Shown one piece after another: positions 23,940-33,579 of a DNA stretch of 64,000 nucleotides. The translations under genes and the position numbers were made by a program. The stretch's first letter is position 1, and each line of letters starts with the position of its first letter. Source of the stretch: Gallionella sp. (lineage in GTDB: Bacteria > Pseudomonadota > Gammaproteobacteria > Burkholderiales > Gallionellaceae); NCBI GenBank assembly GCA_035654695.1, contig DASRWG010000001.1, positions 7,157 to 71,156 of the forward strand, in the 5' to 3' direction. The notes beneath the pieces were generated by a model. It did not search any database, was not told the origin of the DNA, and worked only from the letters and a program-made list of their open reading frames with translations.

Positions 23940-26033
23940 ATGATGGACGCATCGTTCATCAAGAAGCTCCAGCCCGATCCGGACGGCCTCGATTTCGACG
24001 GCCTGAGGAAGGAAGGGATACGGCTCGTCCAGGAAATATCCGGCGACATTTGGACGGATTACAACCTGCACGATCCGGGCGTCACCATACTGGAGGCGCT
24101 GTGCTACGGGCTGACCGATCTGGCCTACCGTAGCGAGTTCGGCGCAGGGGATTACCTGGCGCGGGACGACGGCAAAATCGATTTCGACAAGCAGGCCCTG
24201 CATCGTCCCGACGAGATATTTTCCTGCCGTGCGGTGACCGACAACGATTACCGGAAGCTGATACTCGACGCCGTACCCAACATCGACAACGTGTGGATCA
24301 AACGGCACTCGGCGGAAACGGGAGGCGTGCAGGGGCTGCATTTCATCTACGTGCAATTGAGCGAACGGGTGAAGAACCAGCGCGATGCGGGCGTCAGGAA
24401 GGTCTACGCCGATCTCGTCAAGAAGGTCTATGCGGCGAACCGGAATTTATGCGAAGACCTGGCCGGCGTCGAAATCGTCGAACGCATCCCCTATGCATTG
24501 CGCGGCGAAGTCGAGATCGACGGCAAGCGCGAGCCGGACGGCGTCATGGCGGAGATATATTACGTTTGCGCGCAATACCTGAGCCCCACGGTTGCCGTCC
24601 ATTCTTTCGTGGAGAGGTACAAGGGCGGCCATGCGCTCGAAGCGCTTTTCGACGGCGTAGCGACTGCGCACGGCTACATCGCCGAAGACGAGTTGTATCC
24701 GTGGCGCGGCCAGTTTTCGATTCCCGAGCTGATCGGCAGGGTATGCCGGATCGACGGCGTGACCAACGTCAAGCATCTCGCGTTCGTGGATGGGCGAGGC
24801 GAGGAGCTCGATTGCATCAAGCTGGGCGGGGAGCATTCCTCCTTGAGCGTGGCTTGCCTGCGCTTTCCGTTACAGGATGGCGCGAACGGCGTCAGGCTAC
24901 AGCGGGCCGGCAAGGCATACCGGGTTTCGCCGCGCAAGGTCGAAACCGAATTCGAGCGGCTGGAATTCCAGAGCCAGGCGTCGAGACGCCATAAACGGCA
25001 ATTCGATTGGGTGGAGGCCATGATGCCCGCCGCCGATTTCAGGAACGTCGGCGAGTATTACTCGATCCAGCATCATTTCCCGGATGTCTACGGGCTAAAC
25101 GTTCATGGCGTGCCGGATTCGGCGTCGCCCGCGAGAAAAGCGCAGGCGATGCAACTCAAGGCTTACTTGCTGTTCTTCGAACAGGCCATGGTGAATTTCC
25201 TGCAAAACATGCAGGGCATACCGGAGATATTTTCCCTGGACGAGCCGCAAGTGCGGAGCCGTTCCCCGCAGGTCTTGCGGGACGATGTCATCCCCGAGGT
25301 CGAGGCGCTGTACGCGAACGGCATTGCGCAGATGGAGTCCGATGTCGCCGGGTTGCTGGCGAAGTTCGAGCGCTATGGCGACAGGCGGAGCCGGGCGCTT
25401 GATTACCTGCTGGGCATGTACGGCGAAAAACTCACGCTGAATTCCTTGCGGCAATTCTGGGAAGAGGGCACGGATGCGGAAGGCGAACGCATCGCGAAAA
25501 AAATCGCTTTCCTGAAGGAGATCGTGGACATCGGCAAGAACCGCGGCGCCGCATTCGATTATCTCAAGCCTGCGGATAACGACGGCAACACCGCCGGGCT
25601 GAGCAAGAAACTGGCGGTGCTGCTCGGCCTGAAGGCGTCGCCGGACGGTGCGTCTGAACAGGATCGTGCAAGCCTCGATGTCCGTATCGTGGAGCATATC
25701 CTGTTGCGTCCCCGCGGCGAACCCGCGCGCAACGGCCATCGCGTTCCGGACGATTTCTACAATTTCAGGATATCCGTCCTGTTTCCCGCAGGGCCGGGAT
25801 GCCATGCCGACAAGGACTTCAGGAACCTGGCGGAGGAGACGGTTTACCTGAATTGCCCGGCGCATATTTATCCGGAAATTTTCTGGCTGGACGCGGGGCC
25901 GATGCGCAGGTTCGAGGTGCTGCACGAGGAGTGGCTGAAAGCGAAACGGCAATCCGGCGGCGCGGACAAGACCGATGCGGTGGCGGCGCAGATGATTTTT
26001 TTCCTTCGCGAGATAAGGAAGAAGAATGGATAA
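23940..26033 (+). CDS. baseplate wedge protein (Afp12-like)
   Basis: LDF..LR.EGI...Q.ISG..WTDYNLHDPGVTILE.LCY.LTDL.YR; NRNLCED; QLKAYLLFFEQ; VEHILLRP; NCPAHI. Confidence 0.92.
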   Translation: MMDASFIKKLQPDPDGLDFDGLRKEGIRLVQEISGDIWTDYNLHDPGVTILEALCYGLTDLAYRSEFGAGDYLARDDGKIDFDKQALHRPDEIFSCRAVTDNDYRKLILDAVPNIDNVWIKRHSAETGGVQGLHFIYVQLSERVKNQRDAGVRKVYADLVKKVYAANRNLCEDLAGVEIVERIPYALRGEVEIDGKREPDGVMAEIYYVCAQYLSPTVAVHSFVERYKGGHALEALFDGVATAHGYIAEDELYPWRGQFSIPELIGRVCRIDGVTNVKHLAFVDGRGEELDCIKLGGEHSSLSVACLRFPLQDGANGVRLQRAGKAYRVSPRKVETEFERLEFQSQASRRHKRQFDWVEAMMPAADFRNVGEYYSIQHHFPDVYGLNVHGVPDSASPARKAQAMQLKAYLLFFEQAMVNFLQNMQGIPEIFSLDEPQVRSRSPQVLRDDVIPEVEALYANGIAQMESDVAGLLAKFERYGDRRSRALDYLLGMYGEKLTLNSLRQFWEEGTDAEGERIAKKIAFLKEIVDIGKNRGAAFDYLKPADNDGNTAGLSKKLAVLLGLKASPDGASEQDRASLDVRIVEHILLRPRGEPARNGHRVPDDFYNFRISVLFPAGPGCHADKDFRNLAEETVYLNCPAHIYPEIFWLDAGPMRRFEVLHEEWLKAKRQSGGADKTDAVAAQMIFFLREIRKKNG

Positions 26034-33579: not shown

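Follow-up and report, generated by a model that had tools for sequence, protein, structure and literature searches.

A giant tape measure protein with twelve repeated modules in the contractile injection system of a Gallionella-like bacterium

Introduction

Only now is it becoming clear what fixes the length of an extracellular contractile injection system (eCIS) particle; making the tape measure protein (TMP) Alg14 longer by engineering raises cargo load. The question is posed afresh by a 64,000-nucleotide stretch of a Gallionella sp. contig (DASRWG010000001.1, positions 7,157 to 71,156; hereafter the window, with position 1 as its first letter), where a gene within an eCIS operon (26026..33579, + strand) encodes a protein of 2517 aa, 4.5 times the length of Afp14. 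A sequence-only reading had described this protein as tape-measure-like and built from two alternating modules, and had offered two explanations for its size: an exceptionally long particle whose length is quantised by module, or folded helical domains with a second role such as scaffolding particles or bundling them into arrays. Is the protein a TMP, how is it built, and do its modules measure length?

The giant protein is a tape measure protein encoded in an eCIS operon

Whether the protein is a TMP homolog by profile hidden Markov model (HMM), one of the points on which the sequence-only reading had made its proposal depend, was settled by a match to Pfam family PF19268 (CIS_TMP) at 404.8 bits (cut-off 27.8; E 9e-121). 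Both termini, the position in the operon and homology to Afp14 agree with this assignment. The conserved N-terminal domain (aa 4-253; 26035..26784, +) aligned with profile positions 1-217 (E 1e-33), and the conserved C-terminal domain (aa ~2338-2517; 33037..33576, +) aligned with positions 281-463, the ~180 residues of the latter giving E 1e-71 when scanned alone. The C-terminal domain also matched plasmid genes annotated 'contractile injection system tape measure protein', including that of the Serratia entomophila Afp cluster (tblastn E 1e-9). In pairwise BLASTP comparison with S. entomophila Afp14, 29% identity was found over the C-terminal 161 aa (E 1e-18), and the match between the N-termini was weak (E 0.016). 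The Pfam scan produced no match to phage TMP families (lambda gpH and TP901-1 types), and TMP matches in a Foldseek search of BFVD were non-significant (E > 1).

The open reading frame (ORF) comprises 2517 codons with zero internal stops, and its ATG is preceded by an AGGAAG Shine-Dalgarno sequence. The start of the gene and the stop of the upstream gene share 8 nt, and at the other end the TMP stop codon overlaps the ATG of the downstream AAA+ ATPase gene (33579..34964, +; 461 aa, Afp15/Pvc15-like) within the sequence TGATG at 33577-33581; these overlaps at both ends indicate translational coupling to both neighbours. Sheath, tube, spike, gp25, baseplate and cap genes are all present in the operon, with the TMP gene adjoining that of the ATPase. 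Because housekeeping genes flank the locus (thrS, pheST and dnaB; surE and uvrD), it is chromosomal, and the nearest TMP homologues are annotated as coming from Gallionella metagenome-assembled genomes (MAGs). Taken together, the sequence comparisons strongly support assignment of the gene as the TMP of the Afp14/Pvc14/Alg14 family in a chromosomal eCIS of a Gallionella-like betaproteobacterium. With those three proteins it shares the Pfam family, homologous termini, the position ahead of the AAA+ ATPase gene and an alpha-helical middle.

Twelve copies of two modules make up most of the protein

BLAST searches of 120-aa fragments against the whole TMP returned many non-self matches (E 1e-5 to 1e-65) that fell into two repeat classes, and the modules were delimited using MAFFT alignments and profile HMMs. 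The HMM-defined modules number five of type B and seven of type A in the order B-A-A-B-A-B-A-B-A-A-B-A, exactly as the earlier reading had it; the module positions it gave agree with the HMM boundaries to ~40 nt, and the consensus motifs it quoted are seen in the module alignments. A modules are ~135 aa and B modules ~160 aa long, the two types being unrelated to each other, and each B copy matched the B profile with E 1e-61 to 1e-68.

All modules are encoded on the + strand and all were defined by HMM. The N-terminal domain is followed by a low-complexity linker rich in Ala, Ser and Gly (aa 254-327; 26785..27006, +) and then by B1 (aa 328-485; 27007..27480) and A1 (aa 497-632; 27514..27921), for both of which fragment BLAST and alignment gave further evidence. 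Next come A2 (aa 666-795; 28021..28410), B2 (aa 824-984; 28495..28977), A3 (aa 1017-1151; 29074..29478), B3 (aa 1151-1309; 29476..29952), A4 (aa 1348-1480; 30067..30465), B4 (aa 1476-1634; 30451..30927), A5 (aa 1645-1776; 30958..31353), A6 (aa 1822-1954; 31489..31887), B5 (aa 1983-2145; 31972..32460) and A7 (aa 2162-2297; 32509..32916); A3, B3, A4, B5 and A7 were also modelled, as described below. The modules total 1735 aa, or 69% of the TMP. Linkers between them total 241 aa, the longest being 45 aa, and are rich in Pro, Gly, Ser, Thr and Gln and poor in Leu.

Isolated A modules had no match in Pfam or NCBIfam, and isolated B modules weakly matched the central part of CIS_TMP (E 0.01-0.07) and no other family in either database. 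A degenerate B-like segment ('B0') was detected in the helical part of the N-terminal domain (aa ~155-232). Its signal was weak in the window TMP (E 1.4e-4; E 0.057 in a second test), clearer both among homologues and in the short TMP of an Azospirillum (E 5e-10), and absent from Afp14. The presence of degenerate B segments in N-terminal domains suggests that B may derive from the CIS_TMP family's own central segment.

Two three-module blocks resemble each other closely. The first B-A-A block (27023..28285, +) and the second (30467-31750, +), which lies 3444 nt, or 1148 codons, downstream and in frame, are 79-89% identical in DNA. With 75-82% identity at the amino acid level, B1-A1-A2 and B4-A5-A6 appear to be a younger duplication of a whole block.

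The modules are under purifying selection

A Gallionella MAG that was assembled independently (L003) encodes a collinear orthologue, also of 2517 aa, with 80% identity and the same module order. Comparison of the window TMP with this orthologue gave ratios of nonsynonymous to synonymous substitution (dN/dS) of 0.26 for the N-terminal domain, 0.30 for A modules, 0.31 for B modules and 0.12 for the C-terminal domain, against 0.58 for the inter-module linkers; the low-complexity linker that follows the N-terminal domain gave 0.53. The difference between modules and linkers indicates that the modules are constrained sequence and not free spacer. In agreement with this, 25 B-A units share certain invariant Gly, Trp and Pro positions as well as conserved hydrophobic ones.

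Homologous proteins differ by whole modules

When 1.84 billion representative proteins were searched with a B-A unit profile, 615 clusters matched at E<=1e-3, and 144 clusters did so at E<=1e-30. Six of six tested members, of widely differing architecture, matched CIS_TMP. Architectures among the homologues include BA, BAB, BBAB, BABA, (BA)5, (BA)6, A-only and B-rich forms. Regular alternation in a (BA)n series is specific to the Gallionella-related group.

Variation in module count across homologues, which the sequence-only reading had named as a check of its proposal, was borne out: counts range from 2 to 13, and protein length is linear in module number. Where detected modules account for >45% of the sequence (85 proteins), the fit is length = 455 + 169 x module number (r = 0.93). 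The intercept of 455 is near the 463 positions of the Pfam model, which corresponds to a TMP lacking modules.

The closest relative (P0002), 80% identical and collinear, differs from the window TMP by a single clean gap of 166 aa, which represents one extra B module. This extra B sits at the site of the A1/A2 linker, and the 'A-A' pairs of the window TMP are therefore best read as (BA)n units without a B.

Related genomes were collected with an alignment of the C-terminal domain. Among the complete TMP ORFs of 80 species-representative genomes with a related domain, most span 1000-1900 aa, and only four of the genomes encode a TMP of >2300 aa: two Gallionella MAGs, one Oxalobacteraceae MAG and the cultured strain Solimicrobium silvestre S20-91. 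The CIS TMP gene of S. silvestre S20-91 (L080 2996-10558) encodes 2520 aa; that of another cultured strain, Nitrosomonas oligotropha Nm75 (L028 4802-10516), encodes 1904 aa with the architecture BBABBA. Cultured carriers also include Nitrosomonas supralitoralis APG5, whose TMP has 1802 aa, and Undibacterium spp., at ~2070 aa.

Other giant CIS_TMP proteins belong to the same family and most are likewise built from repeats, which shows module amplification to be a general route of expansion in the family. One of 3443 aa (P0016) is without A or B, and ~2600 of its residues form tandem repeats with a period of ~140 aa and of a different module type; another (P0066, 2696 aa) has A-type modules only, and an Undibacterium protein of 2062 aa has no detectable repeats. 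Two smaller observations concern individual homologues. The linker at ~aa 930-960 of P0009 (2328 aa) contains a run that resembles pentapeptide repeats (NFQNANVQNANFQNANFQNANFPDAN...), and the precomputed Pfam annotation of the protein includes PF00805. On the Azospirillum thermophilum plasmid NZ_CP029358.1 (L002 7856-9528), the short TMP consists of two adjacent ORFs (288 and 267 aa), both named tape measure protein and the first containing the B-like segment mentioned above; this could reflect a frameshift, a split gene or a sequencing error.

Modules are predicted to fold as compact helical domains

AlphaFold2 (AF2) was run on the B5-A7 segment (aa 1979-2319) with a 25-sequence B-A alignment. 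The model had a mean predicted local distance difference test score (pLDDT) of 85.8, with 238 of the 341 residues at >=90, and a predicted template modelling score (pTM) of 0.53. It comprises two separate all-alpha domains with helices of 10-22 residues, joined by a disordered linker. The A3-B3-A4 segment was modelled as three confident domains with linkers at pLDDT <50 (pTM 0.40). Outside the linkers the models are entirely helical, in keeping with a TMP central region that is mainly alpha-helical, and the compact all-alpha A and B domains agree with the folded helical domains that formed part of the second of the earlier explanations. The predicted form is that of beads on a string, neither a long coiled coil nor a rigid rod.

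No relatives of A or B were found in a PDB sequence search, in a Foldseek search against PDB (best E 0.16, TM ~0.2) or in a Foldseek search against BFVD. As the PDB and BFVD searches gave nothing significant, the fold offers no hint of function.

The modules probably act as a quantised ruler

Afp14 has been reported, according to papers that cite the original work, as a regulator of eCIS particle length. Engineered lengthening or shortening of the helical middle of Alg14 shifts AlgoCIS length by 0.229 nm per residue and alters cargo load, duplication or deletion of helices in its central region changes particle length, and comparison among CISs gives a slope of 0.2156 nm per residue, R2 0.84 (bioRxiv 10.64898/2026.05.27.728243). 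The TMP of diffocin (817 aa) forms a trimer spanning 138.8 nm, or 0.17 nm per residue, the C-terminus resting on the spike and the N-terminus lying at the collar (PMC11329794). This TMP contains a domain of short helices that is globular in AlphaFold models and linear in the tube lumen by cryo-EM, and Pvc14 and Afp14 are said in the same study to share such a predicted globular domain (PMC11329794). We do not claim that the predicted globular domain of Afp14 is a B module; hhalign comparison of the B-A profile with Afp14 was non-significant.

Given these precedents, we consider it probable that the window TMP is a ruler whose modules are laid out linearly in the lumen during assembly and whose length evolves in steps of whole modules. 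By analogy with diffocin, the terminal domains (N ~250 aa, C ~180 aa) would be the functional ends, the C-terminal one on the spike or baseplate and the N-terminal one reaching the cap, and the short helices of each module would most likely lie quasi-linearly inside the tube. Each module with its linker (~169 aa) would then contribute ~29-39 nm, or some 7-10 rings of the tube if, as assumed here, a ring rises by ~4 nm. Particle length and lumen capacity may step by whole-module recombination between the repeated DNA segments, and a longer lumen should hold more cargo. From the scaling of other TMPs we infer, for the conformation in the lumen described above, a particle of ~430-580 nm (2517 x 0.17-0.23 nm), as against ~120 nm for AlgoCIS and Afp. 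The compact fold predicted by AF2 is no argument against a ruler, because the AlphaFold-globular domain of diffocin lies linear in the lumen. The exceptionally long particle and the folded helical domains, put forward as alternatives in the sequence-only reading, are thus not truly exclusive.

Several points weigh against a ruler. The nm-per-residue scaling is stretched 4-5-fold past its calibrated range when applied to TMPs with A and B modules. Neither A nor B is detectable in Afp14 by pairwise BLASTP or by the hhalign comparison, so that the calibration comes from TMPs without these modules. The correlation of length with module number falls to r of only 0.50 over all 164 proteins, module detection in divergent homologues being incomplete. 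AF2 confidently gives compact domains for both module types. Finally, a pure spacer would need no such constraint as the modules show, and they may therefore have a role beyond length.

Alternative roles for the modules

The last two points are those from which the most serious alternative draws its strength. Here the protein would still be a TMP, with its modules remaining compact beads of ~3.5-4 nm (~4 nm added by each) in a particle of ordinary or modestly greater length, and serving as sites where cargo or adaptors dock, for instance the three eCIS_core proteins of the locus, or as domains that act after ejection. High-confidence compact all-alpha domains on flexible linkers are what this alternative expects, and the modules are under purifying selection similar to that on the N-terminal domain, with invariant core and turn residues. 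The lumen of a CIS tube is ~4 nm wide, however, and three chains of globular ~18-kDa domains, three being the number shown for diffocin, would be too big to lie in it side by side. No similarity to enzymatic, toxin or binding domains was found for A or B in Pfam, PDB or Foldseek searches. Precedents can be cited on both sides. The diffocin authors propose that globular TMP domains refold after ejection and take on supplementary functions (PMC11329794), and a TMP-related effector of Streptomyces works with a partner containing an eCIS_core domain (PMC13277306), three proteins of that kind being encoded in the present locus. Against this, in the only TMP resolved in situ, that of diffocin, the domain that AF2 makes globular is linear (PMC11329794), and duplication or deletion of the central helices of Alg14 does change particle length (bioRxiv 10.64898/2026.05.27.728243). 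We regard permanently folded beads as a minority possibility, clearly less likely than a ruler.

A bolder version of the ruler, which would join both roles, is somewhat more doubtful again. According to it, A and B would represent two new domain families and together make up a natural, quantised ruler, in the longest eCIS particle yet proposed (~0.5 micrometres, approximately the width of the producing cell), with steps of ~30-40 nm arising by in-frame recombination, for example between the B-A-A blocks 1148 codons apart; after firing, the modules would refold and serve as adaptors for eCIS_core cargo or act in the target cell. As for the array-forming role suggested in the earlier reading, nothing in sequence or context favours it.

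It is improbable that the protein is a TMP-derived effector packaged in the lumen, in the manner of Sle1, with length set by another protein. TMP-related effectors do exist in actinobacterial CIS, and the protein is unusually large and has domains of no assigned function. Yet the TMP was the sole match to CIS_TMP among the operon proteins tested, Pfam and structure searches revealed no effector, toxin or enzyme domain in the TMP, and, where a protein of the Sle1 type would be expected to carry them, segments resembling transmembrane (TM) helices are absent (maximum Kyte-Doolittle 19-residue mean 1.4).

That the repeat architecture is an artefact of metagenome-bin assembly, or the gene a decaying one, is scarcely credible: short-read unitigs do break at k-mers common to the duplicated blocks, and only there, but in four independent soil-metagenome runs the gene is covered by unitigs at even depth, with zero alternative joints, repeat copies are only 72-89% identical in DNA, the reading frame is unbroken over 7.5 kb and its start and stop are coupled to those of the neighbours, and the orthologue in an independent assembly is collinear, with dN/dS well under 1. 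The even unitig depth and the collinear orthologue indicate that the architecture is genuine. No polymorphism in module number was seen as alternative joints in the four runs, where the data are contigs, which hide rare variants.

Comparison with known tape measures and significance

Afp14 (554 aa) and Alg14 (526 aa) are much shorter than the window TMP (2517 aa). Whereas Afp14 has neither internal repeats nor detectable A or B, 12 copies of two non-Pfam domain families account for the 69% of the window TMP given above. The diffocin TMP, CD1366, which spans the lumen in cryo-EM, is likewise mostly helical and has an AlphaFold-globular domain of short helices, the structural precedent for a linear layout of such domains in the tube (PMC11329794). 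It differs in that it has no sequence or fold match to A or B, has one such domain against twelve, has predicted TM helices where the window TMP has none, and belongs to an R-type bacteriocin, not an eCIS.

The repeat units of phage tape measures are short and range from a few to some tens of residues. The units of the window TMP are instead predicted domains of ~135-165 aa, of two alternating kinds and with disordered linkers between them. Rulers with tandem repeats likewise evolve by repeat duplication and loss in lactococcal TP901-1 and in mycobacteriophages, with length proportional to residue number. That tape measures evolve by unit duplication is established for phages, and NCBI already annotates relatives of the present protein as CIS tape measure proteins. 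What is new is a pair of alternating non-Pfam domain families without structural relatives, present in 12 copies and part of a combinatorial system in hundreds of TMPs. No description of a TMP architecture of A and B modules was found in the searchable literature, nor any literature on CIS in Gallionella or anything relevant on Nitrosomonas.

Nature provides a series with constant termini in which module number varies from 2 to 13 and close relatives differ by one module, and which spans a five-fold range of length. This series allows testing of the ruler hypothesis, of the nm-per-residue rule and of the state in the lumen of TMP domains that AF2 makes 'globular', and the modules are evolution-tested building blocks for longer injection particles of higher capacity. 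If the ruler rule is true, iron-oxidising and nitrifying bacteria of soil and water make injection devices half a micrometre long that have never been imaged. A and B occur in >600 protein clusters yet lie outside Pfam, and merit family definitions.

The surrounding locus

The rest of the eCIS structural operon lies at 11925..23060 (+). It begins with a Pvc16_N cap gene (11925-12674, +), a 286-aa ORF without family assignment (12687-13547, +) and the sheath gene (13619-15145, +). Genes for two gp19 tube proteins and a CIS_tube protein (+) lie between the sheath gene and that of the VgrG spike (17051-18838, +), and are followed by gp25 (18846-19268, +) and a 1260-aa protein with a baseplate-wedge/J-like C-terminus (19278-23060, +). 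Between this and the TMP gene lie a 318-aa ORF without family assignment (22925-23881) and the upstream gene with which the TMP start overlaps (23940..26033, +), whose 697-aa product is also without family assignment and has a faint N-terminal match to a baseplate assembly family. The ~1.4 kb between pheT and the cap gene (10557-11925) contains no ORF of >=140 aa and may hold the operon promoter or a regulatory region.

Straight after the AAA+ ATPase gene, a 1031-aa ORF (34751-37846) went unmatched in Pfam, NCBIfam and PHROGs, and its 3′ end is overlapped by a methyltransferase-like ORF in another frame (37558-38457). The three eCIS_core (DUF4157) proteins are encoded downstream of the structural operon (38517-40145, 43247-44542 and 47512-48960) and are probably cargo or effectors, and the third of them also carries an HNH nuclease motif. 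Among their genes lies one for a 957-aa protein consisting almost entirely of RCC1 repeats (40294-43167; 13-14 repeats, beta-propeller), which could be a cargo or binding component. A cyclic nucleotide monophosphate (cNMP)-binding domain fused to a transporter of the Na/sulfate-symporter type, together with a protein resembling ABC substrate-binding proteins, is likewise interleaved with the eCIS_core genes (44591-47466). GC content dips to 0.53 at 38-40 kb and to 0.52 at 48-50 kb.

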